Source: a virus. Taken from it: a stretch of 5,525 nucleotides of DNA. A model generated the notes under the pieces. It made no database searches. It was not told where the DNA came from and saw only the letters and a program-made list of their open reading frames with translations. The stretch spans positions 1 through 5,525 of IMG/VR virus record IMGVR_UViG_3300025641_000002; one strand, given 5' to 3'. Shown here one piece after another: positions 1-5,525 of this stretch; the stretch's first letter is position 1; each line of letters opens with the position of its first letter. Position numbers and translations under genes: made by a program.

Positions 1-46
1 AAAAATAGACGATTTTGATTATCTTGATGCATATTTTGGAAAATAA
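1..46 (+). CDS. Partial CDS: duplicated C-terminal 14 codons plus stop of the pilot/VP2-like protein (KIDDFDYLDAYFGK*)
   Basis: Same sequence and frame as 5399-5444; TAA at 44-46. Present only because of the circular wrap-around. Confidence 0.8.
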   Translation, partial: KIDDFDYLDAYFGK

Positions 47-47
47 A

Positions 48-116
48 ATGTGCGCCAAGTGTAAAAAAATACGAAAAATTATAACCAAAATCATTGCAAG
101 GAGAAAACGCAAATGA
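48..116 (+). CDS. Candidate 22-aa polybasic mini-protein MCAKCKKIRKIITKIIARRKRK (second copy at 5446-5514), possibly a J-like DNA-condensing peptide
   Basis: ATG at 48 lies 1 nt after the VP2-like stop (TAA 44-46). Its TGA (114-116) overlaps the capsid ATG (113-115) as ATGA. 11 of 22 residues are K or R. Caveat: the spacer is A-rich, which gives Lys codons for free, and the SD is weak. Confidence 0.25.
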   Translation: MCAKCKKIRKIITKIIARRKRK

Positions 117-1792
117 GAATGACTGAATTAATACCAAACAGCCCGATTGCTGTACAGAAATCGCGCCGATCTGCAAAAGGTCGAGTATTGACGTCAGGCG
201 ACGCAGGTAAAATCCTGCCGTTGAAATACGAATGGCTACACCGTGAAGACGGCGTGCAAAGCGGTAAAATCCGTATGAACGTTGAAATGATGGAAACATC
301 AGAAATGTTAATGAACGGTGTTGGCGTAACACTTTACGCACATTTTGTCCCAATGCTTGCATTTGACCGATTTAACGGATCAATGGACGAATTGAACCGA
401 TCATATAAAAAAGAAAATGGTGCCGCAGGAAGTGTAGTACCATTTTTTGAAACGAATAAATATTTTGATTATTCTACAAATAGTCAAGGTCAATCATCAG
501 GTACAAGTGGTTGGGATACACTTCAACCTACTCCATCAATAGGTATAGCCCAATTTTATCAAACAATGGGTATGCATTTTGAAACACAAAATTTAAACAC
601 AACAGTTGTTGAAGCATATAATGCAATTGTTAACCATAGACGCAAAGCGAGATCAAAATCATTACCATTAAGAAACGCATATGATCATACTTTAGCTGAT
701 GCGTTTTGGATTAATAATGGAATGCAAAATATCGTACCAGATTACGATCAATCATTGATTGACGGACAAGTAACACTTGCCGGATTGACATTCCAAGCGC
801 CAATAAAAGCACCATTTATGACACGTGATGGATATAATAATTCAGCTGCTGCAAATAACACAACTGGATTACCATCAAGTCAAGGATTTGCACCTGCAAT
901 GGCAGGAAGCGATATCATTGACCAAGGTGATATGTATTTATTTGAAGATATATACGCTGAGTTATCAACAGGCGGAAACGCAACAATGTCATTAGCTGAC
1001 ATTGAGCAAGCACGTAAAACAGCGGCATTTGCTAAATTAAGAGCAAAGTACGATGGAATAGATTCAGAGCATATTATTGACTTACTTATGAGCGGAATAC
1101 GTGTTCCAGAAGAAGCATTAAAACAACCAATATTATTGGGTCGTCAACGTGCAATGATAGGATTTAACCAACGTTATGCAACAGACGGCGCAAACTTGGA
1201 TAAGTCAGCAACAAACGGTATGGCAACAATTGACATGTCAATTAGAACACCGGCTATGAATACCGGCGGCGTTATAATGATAACTGCCGAAATAGTGCCA
1301 GAACAACTTTGGGAACGTAAGAAAGATTATTTCTTATACACAACAGACCCAGATACGTTACCTAACTATCTGTCTGATGTATTAGACCCAGAAAAAACGG
1401 CAGTTGTAAAAAATGACCACGCTGATGTAAACCATGCAACACCAGATGGAACATTTGGTTATGCACCATTAAACCATGAATGGCAAAGAGATGCGGTAAA
1501 TGTAGGTGGTAAATATTACCGCCCTGCAAATGACGCATTTGACGAAGACCGTGCAAAAATTTGGACGGCTGAGTCAATAAACCCATCGCTAAATGAAGAC
1601 TTTTATTTATGTTCAGGTTTGCACAAAAAAGTATTTGCCGATCAAGTATCAGACAGTTTCGAAATCACATGTCTTACAGATATGTCGATTGTAGGAAACA
1701 CCGTATTCGGTGCGGGACTACAAGAAACTGATGCAACATCTGATTACGACACAATCACTTCACAAGTCGATTCCTCGCGTATCGTTAAGTGA
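113..1792 (+). CDS. Major capsid protein, Microviridae F/VP1 family (559 aa)
   Basis: Longest ORF. AAGGAG at 98-103, 9 nt before the ATG. The size is typical of gokushovirus-type VP1. The N-terminal block AGKILPL...(about 35 aa)...LYAHFVPMLAF resembles the conserved G.l.P ... fFVP.R block of F/VP1 jelly-roll capsid proteins, as I recall it. The genomic context (Rep plus pilot protein in a 5.4-kb circle) fits. Confidence 0.88.
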   Translation: MRMTELIPNSPIAVQKSRRSAKGRVLTSGDAGKILPLKYEWLHREDGVQSGKIRMNVEMMETSEMLMNGVGVTLYAHFVPMLAFDRFNGSMDELNRSYKKENGAAGSVVPFFETNKYFDYSTNSQGQSSGTSGWDTLQPTPSIGIAQFYQTMGMHFETQNLNTTVVEAYNAIVNHRRKARSKSLPLRNAYDHTLADAFWINNGMQNIVPDYDQSLIDGQVTLAGLTFQAPIKAPFMTRDGYNNSAAANNTTGLPSSQGFAPAMAGSDIIDQGDMYLFEDIYAELSTGGNATMSLADIEQARKTAAFAKLRAKYDGIDSEHIIDLLMSGIRVPEEALKQPILLGRQRAMIGFNQRYATDGANLDKSATNGMATIDMSIRTPAMNTGGVIMITAEIVPEQLWERKKDYFLYTTDPDTLPNYLSDVLDPEKTAVVKNDHADVNHATPDGTFGYAPLNHEWQRDAVNVGGKYYRPANDAFDEDRAKIWTAESINPSLNEDFYLCSGLHKKVFADQVSDSFEITCLTDMSIVGNTVFGAGLQETDATSDYDTITSQVDSSRIVK

Positions 1793-1796
1793 TAAA

Positions 1797-1825
1797 ATGC
1801 GGGGTAGCTCTCCCCTACCCCGCAT
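1797..1825 (+). terminator. GC-rich stem-loop 5 nt after the capsid stop (11-bp stem, 7-nt loop)
   Basis: ATGCGGGGTAG (1797-1807), loop CTCTCCC, CTACCCCGCAT (1815-1825): a perfect complement. It is followed by AAATTT rather than a clean T-tract, so it is either a weak or partial terminator or a structural hairpin. Confidence 0.5.
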
Positions 1826-1846
1826 AAATTTAAAAAGGAAAATGAA

Positions 1847-2371
1847 ATGAATAGAATTAAACACGGCAATATAAGCAAATGGTCACAAGCAAAAGCGGGC
1901 GACGTAATTGAATTTGCATCAAGCAAACCAAGACATGTAAAGTTTGAAGTAACTGCAAACAGCAACATCGAAGTTTGGGTAGCAAACGATAATAAAATGT
2001 CTGACGCCGTATTGGTGGGAACATCAAACGGAAAAACAGAAATTCAATACACAGCAACCGCAACAACGTATGTGCAAATTAAAGCTGAAAAATCAGCGGC
2101 AGTATTTGTAAATATACCAGATATCGATCAATCAGTACAAAATAGCGATGAACCAAGTTTCACGTCTATTGAGCCACGTGTAAACAACAGCACTGAATTT
2201 GATCGTATGGTTGCATTTATGAAACACAACGAAACGCAACGTAATGCACAATTAGAAGCTGAAAGATCAGCTCTAAGAGCAGAAGTAGCAAAAATTAAAG
2301 CAGAAGCTGAAACAGTAGTTGAAGCGCCACAAGAGGCAGAAACAGAAGATGCAGGAGAAACCCCCGAGTAA
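1847..2371 (+). CDS. Hypothetical protein (174 aa): beta-rich N-terminal half plus acidic, helical E/A/K-rich C-terminal tail. Possibly a scaffold or other structural protein.
   Basis: ATG at 1847 with AAGGA at 1835-1839. It fills the capsid-to-peptidase gap with no competing frame. The C-terminus is NAQLEAERSALRAEVAKIKAEAETVVEAPQEAETEDAGETPE. I recognise no family motif. Confidence 0.7.
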   Translation: MNRIKHGNISKWSQAKAGDVIEFASSKPRHVKFEVTANSNIEVWVANDNKMSDAVLVGTSNGKTEIQYTATATTYVQIKAEKSAAVFVNIPDIDQSVQNSDEPSFTSIEPRVNNSTEFDRMVAFMKHNETQRNAQLEAERSALRAEVAKIKAEAETVVEAPQEAETEDAGETPE

Positions 2372-2885
2372 GTTTCTACGCTGGATACGGTTTATTGACC
2401 GTATCCAGTTTTGGCACCGCGATGAGCTGGTGCATAAAACACACGTAGAAGCGGCAAGATCATTAGCAGAACCTAATGCATCAAAATCACTCTGGGTTAA
2501 AATTCAGCAAACAGAAAACGATTATAGAGGGGTACACCCTGAAATAATTGAGTTTTGGAAAGCATTTTCCAAAGCAATGAAGCGACGCAATATACCATTG
2601 CGAGCGTTTGAATTTGTACGATCTGCAGAACGACAACAAGAGTTATACGATAAAGGCAGAAGCAAAGCATCTGCCGGATTTGGTGCGCACCAATATGGAA
2701 TGGCTGTGGATGTAATCCACGCCACACGCGCATGGCAATTAAGCAAAAAAGAATGGGACTGTATAGGAGCAGTCGGCAAAGAAATAGCGCGTAAAAGAAA
2801 CATAAAATTAGATTGGGGCGGAGATTGGAATTTCTACGATCCCGCACACTGGGAACTAGACAATTGGCAAGACCAAATCAAATAA
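2349..2885 (+). CDS. Zinc metallopeptidase family M15 (VanY / D-Ala-D-Ala carboxypeptidase-like, phage L-Ala-D-Glu endopeptidase-like): putative peptidoglycan hydrolase
   Basis: Motifs RSAERQQELYDKGRS, AHQYGMAVD (His codon 2688, Asp codon 2709) and DWGGDWNFYDPAHWE (His codon 2847) match the H-x6-D...H zinc site and WGG.W...D..H.E signature of M15 enzymes. The start is uncertain. The ORF-track start at 2319 is TTG. I prefer ATG 2349 (AAGAGG at 2331-2336). GTG 2430, downstream of the 2381-2412 hairpin, is also in frame. Confidence 0.85.
   Translation: MQEKPPSKFLRWIRFIDRIQFWHRDELVHKTHVEAARSLAEPNASKSLWVKIQQTENDYRGVHPEIIEFWKAFSKAMKRRNIPLRAFEFVRSAERQQELYDKGRSKASAGFGAHQYGMAVDVIHATRAWQLSKKEWDCIGAVGKEIARKRNIKLDWGGDWNFYDPAHWELDNWQDQIK
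2381..2412 (+). terminator. Intrinsic-terminator-shaped hairpin (10-bp perfect stem, 8-nt loop, TTTT) 10 nt after the 1847-2371 stop
   Basis: CTGGATACGG (2381-2390), loop TTTATTGA, CCGTATCCAG (2399-2408), then TTTT (2409-2412). It lies inside the 5' part of the peptidase ORF if that ORF starts at 2319 or 2349. Confidence 0.55.
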
Positions 2886-2891
2886 AAAACA

Positions 2892-2909
2892 GTAAGTTGA
2901 ATAACTTAC
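2892..2909 (+). other. Stem-loop GTAAGTT-GAAT-AACTTAC in the peptidase-Rep spacer
   Basis: 7-bp perfect stem with a 4-nt loop. The same arm sequences recur in the hairpin at 3138-3160. Confidence 0.5.
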
Positions 2910-2912
2910 ATA

Positions 2913-2955
2913 GGCAAACGGAACGGAAACTCCAAGTATTGGAGTTCCGTTTGCC
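2913..2955 (+). other. Long bulged stem-loop (11 bp + 6-nt bulge + 6 bp, 3-nt loop) in the peptidase-Rep spacer
   Basis: GGCAAACGGAA (2913-2923) pairs with TTCCGTTTGCC (2945-2955). CTCCAA (2930-2935) pairs with TTGGAG (2939-2944). The bulge is CGGAAA (2924-2929). There is no downstream T-tract, so it is not a classical terminator. Confidence 0.6.
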
Positions 2956-3025
2956 GACTAGATATCCCCTACCCTTGTTAAGATATGCATTTAGTGACAC
3001 CAAACGACAGGAACAGCAGTAAATT

Positions 3026-4060
3026 ATGTGCATCGCACCAGTAAAATTAGATGATGGGACGGAAGTTGGGTGTCGCGAATGCTGGCAATGCCGAAAACGT
3101 AGAGTTAACGATTACGTTGGAAGATGCATTGCCGAAAGTAAGTTTTCGAAAAAAACTTACGCTGTAACATTAACGTATGACGGAGACCAAGGCGTTAATG
3201 CAGTAACGTTAATTTATAAAGACGTTCAGGATTTTCTTAAAAGACTGCGTAAAAAACATAAATGTCGTTACATCGTTACTGGAGAATACGGTAGCGCAAA
3301 AGGACGTTCACATTGGCATATAATACTATTCTTTAAGGATAGTTGGCCAGAAGTGACGTCAAACAAAAGGGTAGATTGGAAATATTGGAAACATGGTTTT
3401 AGTTATTTTCAAGAACCGGACTGGAAGGGTTTTGAATATTGCCTAAAATATGTTCTGAAAGATCAGACATCAAGGCAAAGTGATAGCCACTTGGCTATGA
3501 GCAAAAAACCACCACTAGGACACGAGTTTTTTCAACAATTAGCAAAGCAATATGTTGAACAAGCCCTCGTCCCACAAACATATTTCTATAAGTTTGGAGA
3601 CGTCAGGGATTATAAAAACAGAGAAAAGGGGTTTATGATGCAAGGAAAAACAAGAGAAAATTTTATGGAAACTTTTGTCAACCAGTGGGAGGATACATAC
3701 TCTCACGAACCGTTATCGGAATTAGTAACAGACTATTACGACGATATAACGGAAATAGAGTACACGGACGAAGAACTGTACGAAAGATTGCATTATCAAC
3801 CTGTAAAATATGTAGAACCATGGATTGAAGGACAAGGAGACGGAATATTTAAAGATATAGAATTAGTAGAAGCAACGTATGACGGAATACCAATATGTTA
3901 TTGGGATAATAAAAACAAAACAGGCATACATATAGTGACGGAGAATGACGAATGGCACGAAAAAAGACCCGAAGTAATACAAACAATAAAACAAGGACAA
4001 CAAATACAACGACGGCGAACCTACGCCGAAGTACAGTACGCGGAATTGGACGAGGTATAG
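3026..4060 (+). CDS. Rolling-circle replication initiation protein (HUH endonuclease; Microviridae VP4 / gpA-like), 344 aa
   Basis: N-terminal Cys cluster MCIAP...GCRECWQC. Motif I AVTLTY. DFLKRLRKK...RYIVTGEYG. HUH motif HWHIILF (His codons 3311 and 3317). Tyrosine motif YCLKYVLK (Tyr codons 3437 and 3449). This arrangement is the classic gokushovirus-type VP4 layout as I know it. Confidence 0.93.
   Translation: MCIAPVKLDDGTEVGCRECWQCRKRRVNDYVGRCIAESKFSKKTYAVTLTYDGDQGVNAVTLIYKDVQDFLKRLRKKHKCRYIVTGEYGSAKGRSHWHIILFFKDSWPEVTSNKRVDWKYWKHGFSYFQEPDWKGFEYCLKYVLKDQTSRQSDSHLAMSKKPPLGHEFFQQLAKQYVEQALVPQTYFYKFGDVRDYKNREKGFMMQGKTRENFMETFVNQWEDTYSHEPLSELVTDYYDDITEIEYTDEELYERLHYQPVKYVEPWIEGQGDGIFKDIELVEATYDGIPICYWDNKNKTGIHIVTENDEWHEKRPEVIQTIKQGQQIQRRRTYAEVQYAELDEV
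3138..3160 (+). other. Stem-loop GTAAGTTTT-CGAAA-AAAACTTAC inside the Rep gene
   Basis: 9-bp perfect stem with a 5-nt loop. It shares the GTAAGTT/AACTTAC arms with 2892-2909. It lies in codons for ESKFSKKTY. Confidence 0.45.
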
Positions 4061-4254
4061 AAATATACAGTCCACCCGTTGAACAACGGGAGCGAACAGC
4101 CGAACCACCTCCCGAACGGGATCTAGCGAAGCGGAAAAAATCCCCGAAAAACTTTACGGTCAGAGATCTGCGGATAAGGTGTAAGGACAGACCTAAGAAA
4201 AACACCCCTACTGGGGGGTCAGGGTCTAAAAAAACATTTGTACCTTGGTGTTAA
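3952..4254 (+). CDS. Overprinted, highly basic 100-aa ORF (27 K+R, 8 D+E), possibly a DNA-binding or packaging protein
   Basis: ATG at 3952 with GGAG at 3940-3943 (8-nt spacer). It overlaps the last 109 nt of Rep in the -1 frame and then is the only open frame across 4061-4254. The C-terminal part is KRKKSPKNFTVRDLRIRCKDRPKKNTPTGGSGSKKTFVPWC. There is no internal canonical start after the Rep stop. Confidence 0.45.
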   Translation: MARKKTRSNTNNKTRTTNTTTANLRRSTVRGIGRGIEIYSPPVEQRERTAEPPPERDLAKRKKSPKNFTVRDLRIRCKDRPKKNTPTGGSGSKKTFVPWC

Positions 4255-4288
4255 AAGTAAAAAAATGATACATTTTTAAAAAAAGTGC

Positions 4289-4318
4289 TTTACATTCCCA
4301 AATGTACAAAGCTATAAA
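4289..4318 (+). promoter_or_regulatory. Candidate sigma70-type promoter TTTACA-18 nt-TATAAA in the largest noncoding region
   Basis: TTTACA at 4289-4294 and TATAAA at 4313-4318, in the AT-rich 4255-4415 spacer upstream of the mini-ORF / VP2 / capsid gene block. Pattern match only. Confidence 0.3.
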
Positions 4319-4415
4319 AACGTATGGGTCAACACAACGAGTCTCATCATGGTATCATAATATATATTATCGGCCATTGAGCGTTTTGACCCTTCTATAA
4401 AAGAAGGAGTAAAAA

Positions 4416-4595
4416 TTGCAATTACTACTAATCAAGCAAATTCTAAAACCGATTATCACAAGATGTGGTACTATGCTTGGCGCATCGCTTGCGGGCGCAG
4501 GAATAGCAGTTGGTACAACGGAAAGTATCGTTTTGGGATTTACCGCACTAGCGGGAGTATCGATCGACCTCATAACACGGAGGTGGATCAAATGA
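4416..4595 (+). CDS. Unannotated 59-aa small membrane protein (two Gly/Ala-rich hydrophobic segments, basic C-terminus), holin-like candidate
   Basis: TTG at 4416 preceded by AAGGAG (4404-4409, 6-nt spacer) and an in-frame TAA at 4410. Hand translation gives M(TTG)QLLLIKQILKPIITRCGTMLGASLAGAGIAVGTTESIVLGFTALAGVSIDLITRRWIK. The TGA at 4593-4595 overlaps the next ATG (ATGA). Confidence 0.5.
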   Translation: MQLLLIKQILKPIITRCGTMLGASLAGAGIAVGTTESIVLGFTALAGVSIDLITRRWIK

Positions 4596-4687
4596 AATTA
4601 AAAGACATCATTATAGCAACAGTAGCGGGAATAGTAATGGGTTTAGCCTTATTCTCGGATACGTTGTTAAACGCGGGAGTAATATAA
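4592..4687 (+). CDS. 31-aa single-pass membrane mini-protein MKLKDIIIATVAGIVMGLALFSDTLLNAGVI
   Basis: ATG at 4592 with GGAGG at 4579-4583 (8-nt spacer). It is ATGA-coupled to the upstream mini-ORF, and its stop at 4685-4687 is 1 nt before the VP2-like ATG. It is the C-terminal part of the 74-aa track ORF 4463-4687, whose N-terminal part looks non-coding. Confidence 0.5.
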   Translation: MKLKDIIIATVAGIVMGLALFSDTLLNAGVI

Positions 4688-4688
4688 T

Positions 4689-5444
4689 ATGCCATTTGGA
4701 TTAACATTTGGAAAACTTGCACAAGTAGCACTTGGAGCTTATGGCGCAAAAAAGAGTGCTAAAGCAATGAAAGGCGCAAACGATCTTGATTTGAAAAAAT
4801 TAAGACGTGAAGCAGAAGAAAATGGGTTTAACCCATTAACAGTACTACGAGCCACAGGCGGACAAGGTAGTACAAAAGGCCCATCTGGCGGTTTAGCTAG
4901 TGGGGCATTTTTTAGTACATTTGCACAAGGAATACCAAGTATTCTTGAATCAAATTACGATAAAAAAATGAAAGATGCACAGTTAGCAAGTACAATTGCT
5001 AACACACGTTATACGGGTGCATTAACACATGATTTATTAACAAATCCAAATAAAGGCGGACGAAGAATTGATCCATTAAGTGGATTAGAAATTAAAGACG
5101 CTTTTATACAAGTAATGGGTGATGATGGGAAATTAACAAAAGTTCCCAACAACGAAATTACAGAAGGTAACAATCCAATTGAATTAGCAACAGCTGCAGG
5201 TATGCAAATAACATCAGAAGTTGCAAATAAATTAGGAGTGCCATTACCTACCCCAACATCTTATGTTGATATGGGTGCAAAGGTTTGGAATAAAATTGGA
5301 TTATTATCAAAAGGTGCTTTTGATAAATTAAAATCCAAAGCAACTAAAAGTTATCAAGAAAATCACGGAGCTTTAGCAAGTGATACAATCATAACGTCAA
5401 AAATAGACGATTTTGATTATCTTGATGCATATTTTGGAAAATAA
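4689..5444 (+). CDS. Minor capsid / DNA pilot protein (VP2 / H-like), 251 aa
   Basis: GGGAG at 4675-4679, 9 nt before the ATG. It has a Gly/Ala-rich hydrophobic N-terminus (MPFGLTFGKLAQVALGAYGA) and then a basic helix. The EENGFNPLTVL motif resembles the G(L/I)NP motif I associate with gokushovirus-type VP2. It sits directly upstream of the capsid gene on the circle. Confidence 0.7.
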   Translation: MPFGLTFGKLAQVALGAYGAKKSAKAMKGANDLDLKKLRREAEENGFNPLTVLRATGGQGSTKGPSGGLASGAFFSTFAQGIPSILESNYDKKMKDAQLASTIANTRYTGALTHDLLTNPNKGGRRIDPLSGLEIKDAFIQVMGDDGKLTKVPNNEITEGNNPIELATAAGMQITSEVANKLGVPLPTPTSYVDMGAKVWNKIGLLSKGAFDKLKSKATKSYQENHGALASDTIITSKIDDFDYLDAYFGK

Positions 5445-5525
5445 AATGTGCGCCAAGTGTAAAAAAATACGAAAAATTATAACCAAAATCATTGCAAGGA
5501 GAAAACGCAAATGAGAATGACTGAA
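5399..5525. repeat. Terminal direct repeat, copy 2 (includes the duplicated capsid start codon at 5511)
   Basis: Identical to nt 1-127, offset 5,398 nt. ATG 5511 corresponds to ATG 113. Confidence 0.97.

Follow-up and report, generated by a model that had tools for sequence, protein, structure and literature searches.

Two very short genes precede the pilot protein gene in the marine microvirus genome IMGVR_UViG_3300025641_000002 (IMG/VR). They are among the most constrained genes of that genome, and the first of them is a credible candidate for the holin-type partner of an M15 peptidase, the putative endolysin encoded elsewhere on the circle. The DNA analysed, hereafter the window, is the whole stretch of 5,525 nucleotides (nt), positions 1 to 5,525 of the record; it represents a full circular genome of about 5.4 kb in which positions 1 to about 125 are repeated at 5401-5525, and every gene lies on the + strand (Table 1). 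The two open reading frames (ORFs), here called ORF-A and ORF-B, specify predicted membrane proteins of 59 and 31 amino acids (aa). That both are genes is seen from the pattern of substitutions among relatives. The function of ORF-A is deduced from its co-occurrence with the enzyme and from a faint family likeness, and we put the probability of a holin-type role at about 0.5. What would be new here, and is partly supported, is holin-endolysin lysis in a single-stranded DNA (ssDNA) microvirus by means of dispersed genes chained to the pilot gene.

Two coupled genes ahead of the pilot gene

A list of ORFs made by program offers, for the interval between the replication gene (Rep) and the pilot gene (VP2), a 74-aa ORF (4463-4687) that is an upstream extension of the ORF-B frame. 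The preliminary description of this DNA had preferred two small coupled ORFs, and the details on which it relied are all present. An AAGGAG motif lies 6 nt ahead of a TTG codon, from which ORF-A (MQLLLIKQILKPIITRCGTMLGASLAGAGIAVGTTESIVLGFTALAGVSIDLITRRWIK) runs to a TGA stop at 4593-4595. This stop overlaps, as ATGA, the ATG codon at 4592 that opens ORF-B (MKLKDIIIATVAGIVMGLALFSDTLLNAGVI); the latter has a GGAGG of its own 8 nt upstream, and its TAA stop (4685-4687) is separated by a single base from the ATG of the pilot gene at 4689. AAGGAG is not rare in the window (4 copies versus 1.85 expected). Since the motif alone is statistically unremarkable, the case rests on comparative data.

Relatives were drawn from IMG/VR, 80 via the capsid protein and 36 more via a capsid alignment, and from GenBank. 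Three distant capsid proteins used as single queries of IMG/VR gave no matches, so that the alignment was required as query, and the ORF-A/ORF-B region found no match by blastn among GenBank phages. The gene order Rep, ORF-A, (ORF-B), VP2, major capsid protein (MCP) is kept in all relatives compared. Throughout the closest clade (34 of 34 loci), the TTG is preceded by AAGGAG or a one-base variant of it; other clades have TTG preceded by GAAGGGA, or ATG preceded by GAGGTG. The ORF-B start lies within ORF-A, 1, 5, 10 or 11 bases from its end, and the stop falls at the pilot ATG or within 1-2 nt of it. The TTG start and its AAGGAG, as well as the ATGA overlap, whose conservation had been proposed as a check, recur among relatives, and so does the abutment on the pilot gene.

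The 34 loci of the closest clade, window included, yielded 33 distinct sequences over a 272-nt region. Counted by codon position (1/2/3) of the respective frame, variable sites numbered 28/9/45 for ORF-A and 15/4/23 for ORF-B. The ratio of non-synonymous to synonymous polymorphism (pN/pS, pooled Nei-Gojobori) was 0.14 for ORF-A, versus 1.3 and 4.6 in the other two frames, and 0.17 for ORF-B, versus 1.2 and 2.8. For comparison, the same clade gave 0.28 for MCP, 0.26 for the 174-aa protein, 0.17 for M15 and 0.18 for Rep. ORF-A and ORF-B are genuine genes, and the constraint falls on protein rather than on DNA. A cis-acting DNA element (origin or promoter) was considered as the cause of conservation and rejected, because substitutions cluster at third codon positions. 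The 74-aa reading from ATG 4463 was also discarded: its upstream 43 codons lie in the frame with a pN/pS of 4.6, only about 4 of 52 loci retain the 40-43-codon extension with its upstream ATG, and in many the frame is interrupted by stops. Relatives that break the small ORFs and keep the 4463 frame had been named beforehand as the pattern to look for against the two-gene reading; the opposite was found, the 4463 frame being broken in most. Selection and relatives both favour the two coupled genes.

Both genes had been described as unannotated. This holds in part: GenBank lists ORF-A homologues as hypothetical proteins in CRPss-151 to -155 and has annotations for both ORFs in CRPss-251. Gene callers usually leave the 31-aa gene uncalled and often extend both genes wrongly, producing 74-aa and 90-aa versions. 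The 90-aa ORF-A matches were examined as possible ORF-A+ORF-B fusions (59+31) and turned out to be upstream-extended gene calls. The gene models given here improve the annotation of hundreds of abundant marine microvirus genomes.

The segment upstream of ORF-A (4255-4403) is AT-rich and non-coding, with two promoter-like pairs of hexamers. One, recognised by eye at about 4289-4318, consists of TTTACA and TATAAA spaced by 18 nt; the other, returned by a scan at 4329-4358, consists of TCAACA and TATCAT with the same spacing. Their presence suggests that ORF-A is the first gene of an ORF-A/ORF-B/VP2/MCP transcription unit.

Predicted membrane proteins encoded by ORF-A and ORF-B

ORF-A begins with an amphipathic stretch carrying a KPII(T/R)R motif. 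There follow a basic pair, a Gly/Ala-rich helix of weak hydrophobicity and, after a short polar loop, a second and more hydrophobic helix that contains the invariant Asp51; the protein ends in a short charged tail (RRWIK). The family consensus reads MxKFLLxEIAKPIIRRxGTxMGAxLxGxGVAxxQAxxIETAxxxLxLVxxDLILSxxxRxx. An alignment of 10 sequences from across the clades shows no variation at P12, R16, G18, L25, G29 and D51, and P, R, G, G, D and L are nearly invariant across 148 cluster representatives. The hydrophobic segments cover residues 17-33 and 38-54, with Kyte-Doolittle (KD) values of 1.4-1.5 and about 1.95, respectively; on Kyte-Doolittle and Hessa sums they approximate the transmembrane domains (TMDs) of lambda S, in what is only a rough comparison. 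AlphaFold2, given a 21-sequence alignment, predicted a helix-loop-helix (H2-26 and H32-57 in a model that begins at ORF-A residue 2) with a mean predicted local distance difference test (pLDDT) score of 74.7. Foldseek searches of PDB with this model returned generic helical hairpins alone, with E above 3, and a sequence search of PDB with the family profile gave no match. The tail, TRRWIK in the window, ends ...SHLERTK, ...SYKDRQK or ...RRRRK in relatives and is much shorter than that of many holins.

Searching 5.8 billion proteins with the ORF-A profile gave 166 matches; the 120 listed carry no Pfam domain, are nearly all 'hypothetical' and come from contigs no longer than about 12 kb. When 1.84 billion cluster representatives were searched exhaustively with HMMER, 404 matched at E<=1e-3, nearly all of them 57-100 aa long. 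The contigs of three distant members were inspected and all proved to be microvirus genomes or fragments: two are full 5.8-kb genomes with the order Rep, ORF-A, VP2, MCP, M15, and in the third VP2 comes directly after ORF-A. The family is large, old and confined to this microvirus group in every context checked.

ORF-B has a basic N-terminus (MKLK), one transmembrane (TM) segment (IIIATVAGIVMGLALF; KD-15 mean 2.65, summed Hessa dG -1.9), a tail of 7-9 residues and the family motif ALF(G/S)(P/D). All marine clades examined have, at the corresponding position, a peptide of 29-32 aa that is homologous in sequence and carries the motif ...G..hG.hh..ALFGP...; among them is one clade missed by the hidden Markov model (HMM) search (MWIKEIISGLSFGVIGGFILFVLPIIMEI). 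In three clades the ORF-B TM segment forms the C-terminal anchor of a 75-91-aa protein. These anchored proteins (L088 2086-2361, L119 4709-4984, L111 4732-4959) share a conserved soluble N-terminal domain (DLPSDFD.KFAEQTIEAY.AIYE.TGEF), found in one clade, at locus L086 (213-494), as a separate 93-aa ORF between ORF-A and ORF-B. The Rhizobium, tortoise and bat relatives have ORF-A and lack ORF-B, and several relatives without ORF-B, RHph_Y2 among them, have ORF-A coupled straight to VP2. The distribution of ORF-B is a subset of that of ORF-A, and ORF-B is always chained between ORF-A and VP2. Two known classes of small lysis protein were rejected for ORF-B: it is too short for a spanin, with no Cys or lipobox and only about 7-9 residues after the TM segment, and with a net charge of 0 it lacks the cationic character of a disruptin. 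Both ORF-A and ORF-B are well supported as membrane micro-proteins, their insertion and topology being predicted.

ORF-A as a candidate partner of the M15 peptidase

Microviridae provide the classic case of lysis by one small protein that blocks cell-wall synthesis. Many environmental microviruses carry a peptidoglycan hydrolase instead, as has been known since 2012, and the activity of the enzyme of phage Ebor was verified in 2025. Roux et al. (2012) proposed that microvirus M15 peptidases act in lysis and reported that, in the genomes of bacteria and prophages, holin genes accompany the homologous peptidases (PMC3394797). In their description of the CRPss phages and the M15 gene, Zhang et al. 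(2024) mention neither holins nor membrane proteins (PMC11499846). We found no explanation in the searchable literature for the route by which a signal-less enzyme crosses the membrane, and no proposal of a microvirus holin in full-text papers (open-access papers and bioRxiv). The ORF-A family offers a concrete candidate for M15 exit: it is microvirus-specific, it tracks the enzyme and it faintly resembles putative holins. The idea is directly testable in cultured relatives (CRPss-151 to -155, Rhizobium phages, Ebor).

The M15 protein of the window matches Pfam PF13539 (Peptidase_M15_4) with 31.1 bits (cut-off 25) and the PHROG endolysin family phrog_465 at 5e-21. Its relatives in PDB are L-Ala-D-Glu endopeptidases (8q2g, 5opz (ChiX), LysB4 and 2vo9 (Ply500)), and the Zn-ligand motifs are intact. 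ChiX, matched at E=2e-9, has this same specificity and requires a holin-like partner; the Serratia ChiW/ChiX holin-endopeptidase pair to which it belongs is a bacterial secretion system. No signal peptide or signal-anchor-release (SAR) segment was detected in M15, whose maximum KD-15 value is 0.69 and not N-terminal. Lacking an export signal, the enzyme therefore needs a partner that makes a membrane lesion. Gp7, the purified lytic enzyme of Ebor, a sister-group phage, degrades peptidoglycan (Bardy et al., 2025; PMC11980548).

All M15-positive genomes in which the Rep-VP2 interval is covered carry ORF-A there, except three divergent ones (L007, L138, L140) that have other small hydrophobic ORFs in the interval. 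The four M15-less genomes, CRPss-154 and three Ciona-associated microviruses, all lack ORF-A, and no M15-less genome with ORF-A was found among those that are complete or sufficiently covered. This joint presence or absence supports a holin partner in a way that is suggestive rather than strong, because the cases of co-absence represent only about two independent lineages.

The M15-less relatives carry different short and strongly hydrophobic ORFs (L133 3992-4096, L139 3936-4403, L006 1657-1761), such as the 34-aa MVLVTRARKDFMFVSGLDFFIVAILILIAASLSD. At the M15 position, CRPss-154 (L006 5145-5720) has an unrelated 191-aa protein with no family match. It is possible that these ORFs and the 191-aa protein are alternative lysis solutions.

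A remote and mostly sub-threshold resemblance to a holin family emerged from the ORF-A family as a whole. PF23987 (Phage_holin_10, 'Bacteriophage holin Pam3 gp28 family') was matched by 12 of 21 members at E<=5 and was the only Pfam family to recur among the 21. The alignments are co-linear and close to full length, reaching model positions 6-52 of 52 with 12-19 bits, and 19 of the 148 cluster representatives match at E<=0.01, most of these likewise with 12-19 bits. One member, P0233, reaches 27.5 bits where the gathering cut-off is 27; it is encoded on a 5.8-kb microvirus contig together with a Peptidase_M15_4 gene. When ten members, nine of which match forwards, were reversed, none matched PF23987; the signal is therefore not merely compositional. 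The PHROG holin family phrog_565 was weakly matched by 5 of the 21 members. Of the direct searches from the window in Pfam, PHROGs and NCBIfam, the best match was to a PHROG holin, at a non-significant E=0.16 and on the spurious 74-aa reading. By these profile comparisons the ORF-A family is probably a remote relative of PF23987, of which the window's ORF-A is not a member by the curated test.

PF23987 proteins, like ORF-A, are small, with two hydrophobic helices followed by a basic cluster, and their partner in tailed phages is a Peptidase_M15_4 lysin, of the same enzyme family as the window's M15. In the Pseudanabaena myophage Pam3, gp28 (the putative holin) comes immediately after gp27, a PG_binding_1+Peptidase_M15_4 lysin, and the PF23987 genes of metagenomic contigs L147 and L148 directly follow a lysin of this composition; in contigs L143 and L144 the gene upstream carries PG_binding_1 only. 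The pairing of a Peptidase_M15_4 lysin with a two-helix protein is thus an adjacent cassette in tailed phages and two separated genes in microviruses. ORF-A differs in residing in a 5.4-kb ssDNA microvirus and in having its lysin elsewhere. BLASTP between the window's M15 and Pam3 gp27 was not significant, and the link between the two enzymes is a shared Pfam domain only. Phage_holin_10 is itself a putative holin family.

Just after the Pam3 holin gene lies gp29 (L141 21183-21392, 70 aa), which scores 22 bits against XhlA PF10779 (cut-off 34.7). The Pam3 cassette may thus include a second small lysis-associated membrane protein, in loose parallel to ORF-B.

Set beside the Young/Wang criteria for holins, ORF-A is small (below about 150 aa) with TM helices on crude scales and in the AlphaFold2 model, and it ends in a hydrophilic charged tail. 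It has a single TTG start and no dual-start motif, M-S-M or M-M starts occurring inconsistently in some clades. Class II holins and pinholins such as phage 21 S68 are about 60-70 aa long and have two TMDs, the first a weakly hydrophobic Gly/Ala-rich helix. ORF-A would resemble them in its two predicted TMDs, presumably N-in/C-in, its Gly/Ala-rich helix 1 and its short charged C-terminus. Pinholins, however, work with SAR endolysins, and M15 has no N-terminal SAR segment; the dual start and any sequence similarity are also missing.

Ebor, a member of the sister subfamily Tainavirinae, has the same layout: one or more small membrane-protein genes precede the pilot gene, a peptidoglycan hydrolase is encoded in another part of the genome, and the gene of a basic virion protein overlaps Rep at its 3' end. 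Its Gp1, a predicted membrane protein of 45 aa encoded upstream of VP2, was assigned no function and holins are not mentioned in that study (PMC11980548). The protein went undetected in virions by liquid chromatography-tandem mass spectrometry (LC-MS/MS; PMC11980548). Mass spectrometry, however, easily misses small hydrophobic peptides. By analogy, ORF-A may not be a virion protein.

A working model can be built from these elements. Made from a weak TTG start, ORF-A would form two-helix hairpins that slowly accumulate in the cytoplasmic membrane. Once a critical level is reached, it would oligomerise through the Gly/Ala-rich helix 1 and the Asp-containing helix 2 and permeabilise the membrane; the lesion would let the cytoplasmic, signal-less L-Ala-D-Glu-type endopeptidase M15 reach the peptidoglycan. 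ORF-B, made in step with ORF-A and the pilot protein, would most likely modulate or assist ORF-A. This would be a holin-endolysin system with genes about 1.5 kb apart on a 5.4-kb circle, and the map bears out the earlier remark that the lysis parts are set apart (2349-2885 and 4416-4595). We infer membrane insertion, topology, hole formation, timing and M15 release. The role of ORF-B is the weakest part of the model: a holin accessory (co-holin or antiholin) is the most economical guess, and a tentative one that we consider somewhat unlikely to be correct.

Besides the small number of lineages in which ORF-A and M15 are lost together, several findings weigh against a holin role. The ORF-A gene is not adjacent to that of M15; Rep lies between them, and the layout is the same in all relatives. 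A role connected with VP2 would explain the tight coupling to the pilot gene just as well. Neither peptide of the window has a significant match in Pfam, PHROGs or NCBIfam, holin families included for ORF-A, and against PF23987 the window's ORF-A gives no match at E<=5, below the 27-bit gathering cut-off. Alignment-to-alignment comparison of ORF-A with Pam3 gp28 by hhalign yielded a probability of 8.5-9% (pairwise E 0.004, 50-54 columns), and cross-family HMMs built locally score at most 13 bits. ORF-A also lacks the conserved C-terminal extension of about 35 aa found in the PF23987 family (AGLVASAAALPEV...). As far as we could find, Pam3 gp28 is a holin by annotation alone ('putative phage holin' in UniRef), and the Pam3 papers searched contain no holin experiments; a PF23987 locus in a Bosea chromosome showed no adjacent lysin. 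Helix 1 of ORF-A is short and weakly hydrophobic, with charged residues before it, which makes bitopic insertion uncertain. For ORF-B, nothing specific to a holin or antiholin was found beyond co-conservation and coupling. Of the two peptides that had been put forward as holin-type partners of M15, ORF-A retains this standing indirectly, through the signal-less enzyme, the co-occurrence, the PF23987 similarity and the tailed-phage pairing; for ORF-B it is a guess.

The coupling to the pilot gene is the starting point of the alternative that survives best, namely that ORF-A and ORF-B are membrane partners of VP2, acting at the inner membrane in the insertion, chaperoning or dosage of VP2 for assembly or DNA delivery, or in superinfection exclusion, and unrelated to M15. 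It would account for the invariant synteny upstream of VP2, for the chain that links ORF-A, ORF-B and VP2 (ATGA, then TAAnATG) and for the direct coupling of ORF-A to VP2 where ORF-B is missing; VP2 N-termini are Gly-rich and hydrophobic too. VP2, however, is universal, yet the four M15-less genomes keep it without ORF-A. ORF-A is also far better conserved (85-98% identity, versus 35-95% for VP2 across the same loci) and stays so where VP2 drops to 35-60%, a discrepancy that would be surprising between proteins in tight physical contact. Ebor's small membrane protein was undetected in virions, and the Phage_holin_10 similarity would be left unexplained. We regard this alternative as unlikely.

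Another membrane role, such as anchoring rolling-circle replication or procapsid assembly, or host take-over, with the holin similarity being convergent, appears less probable still. The low hhalign probability (about 9%), the want of an informative structural match and the position of the ORF-A gene after Rep and a non-coding region agree with it; yet the reversed-sequence control argues that the Pfam matches are not compositional, one ORF-A member passes the curated cut-off, and the co-occurrence with M15 is not predicted.

Least probable, and clearly improbable, is that one of the peptides is an 'amurin' of the phiX174 E type blocking a peptidoglycan-precursor enzyme such as MraY, MurJ or MurA, with M15 auxiliary or serving entry. 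In its favour, lysis by a single small protein with an N-terminal TMD has its paradigm in the Microviridae (PMC3394797), ORF-B is a short single-TMD peptide and the short hydrophobic ORFs of M15-less relatives could fill this part. Against it, ORF-A and ORF-B stand alone and are strongly conserved, unlike young ORFs nested within other genes; the muralytic enzyme that accompanies them has its Zn-ligand motifs intact but, for want of an export signal, needs a membrane lesion; and ORF-A resembles a holin family, not E. An E-like mode of lysis, offered earlier as an alternative, has accordingly lost ground. The E protein of phiX174, encoded out of frame within gene D and with a single TMD at its N-terminus, is an inhibitor of MraY that requires no muralytic enzyme; ORF-A shares with it the character of a small microvirus membrane protein implicated, as a candidate, in lysis.

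If ORF-A is the holin-type partner of M15, its origin may lie in a captured cassette. An Occultatumvirinae ancestor could have acquired from an alphaproteobacterial phage a complete tailed-phage cassette for lysis (Peptidase_M15_4 lysin plus Phage_holin_10-type holin), split it, and wired the holin to the pilot gene together with ORF-B, a new 30-aa membrane peptide; we offer this history as speculation that is probably wrong in at least part. Were it true, an ssDNA microvirus would run a timed, multi-component holin-endolysin lysis, and ORF-B would represent a previously unrecognised class of micro-regulator (antiholin or co-holin).

Other features of the genome

Table 1. Features of the window (coordinates of the 5,525-nt stretch)
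Feature	Position	Strand	Remark
Major capsid protein (MCP)	113-1792	+	
174-aa protein with acidic tail	1847-2371	+	
M15 peptidase, putative endolysin, proposed cargo of ORF-A	2349-2885	+	Peptidase_M15_4 / VanY-type, L-Ala-D-Glu endopeptidase-like
Rep	3026-4060	+	
Basic 100-aa ORF, out of frame with Rep and overlapping its 3' end	3952-4254	+	
Shine-Dalgarno AAGGAG of ORF-A	4404-4409	+	read from sequence
ORF-A, 59 aa, candidate holin, predicted two-helix membrane protein	4416-4595	+	TTG start
Upstream part of the listed 74-aa ORF; non-coding in this frame	4463-4591	+	pN/pS 4.6
Shine-Dalgarno GGAGG of ORF-B, within the 3' end of ORF-A	4579-4583	+	read from sequence
ORF-B, 31-aa single-pass membrane peptide (predicted)	4592-4687	+	ATG start
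Pilot protein VP2, translationally chained to ORF-B	4689-5444	+	CRPss-154 homologue annotated DNA pilot protein
22-aa basic micro-ORF ahead of the capsid gene	5446-5514 (= 46-116)	+	

The capsid protein of the window is 75-77% identical to those of Roseobacter phages CRPss-151, -152, -153 and -155 and 41-47% identical to those of Rhizobium, tortoise, bat and rat microviruses. The window was therefore assigned, on capsid sequence, to the proposed subfamily Occultatumvirinae (PMC11499846), with Roseobacter phages CRPss-151 to -155 as its nearest relatives.

The ORF that overlaps the end of Rep encodes a very basic protein whose C-terminus, ...R(C)KDRPK...G.G.K.FVPWC, is conserved in all relatives (109-171 aa). 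In position and charge it matches Ebor Gp10, a 'charge-mitigating' virion-associated protein (PMC11980548); some CRPss records in GenBank annotate part of it only. A second basic product is specified by the micro-ORF between VP2 and the capsid gene (MCAKCKKIRKIITKIIARRKRK), which is highly basic and has a C-x2-C-KKIR motif. It is found at the same position across relatives as 34 distinct sequences of 20-36 aa, usually unannotated, and may be a DNA-condensing peptide of the J/VP8 type.

VP2 is hypervariable: among loci L009-L088 its identity ranges from 35 to 95%, with capsid, Rep, M15, ORF-A and ORF-B at 80-100%. This variability suggests modular exchange or diversifying selection on VP2.

Strong GC-rich hairpins lie directly 3' of the capsid gene (1797-1825; GCGGGGTAG...CTACCCCGC) and 3' of the M15 gene (2888-2955, with a stem of about 20 bp; GGCAAACGGAAC...GTTCCGTTTGCC). 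Possible functions are those of a terminator, an attenuator or a structural element of the ssDNA; a simple terminator scan of the + strand called neither. Finally, several IMG/VR contigs (L013, L031/L123, L040 and L033) measure 8-12 kb, about twice the genome length, with the gene set doubled or permuted. These are probably concatemeric assemblies of circular genomes, not prophages.

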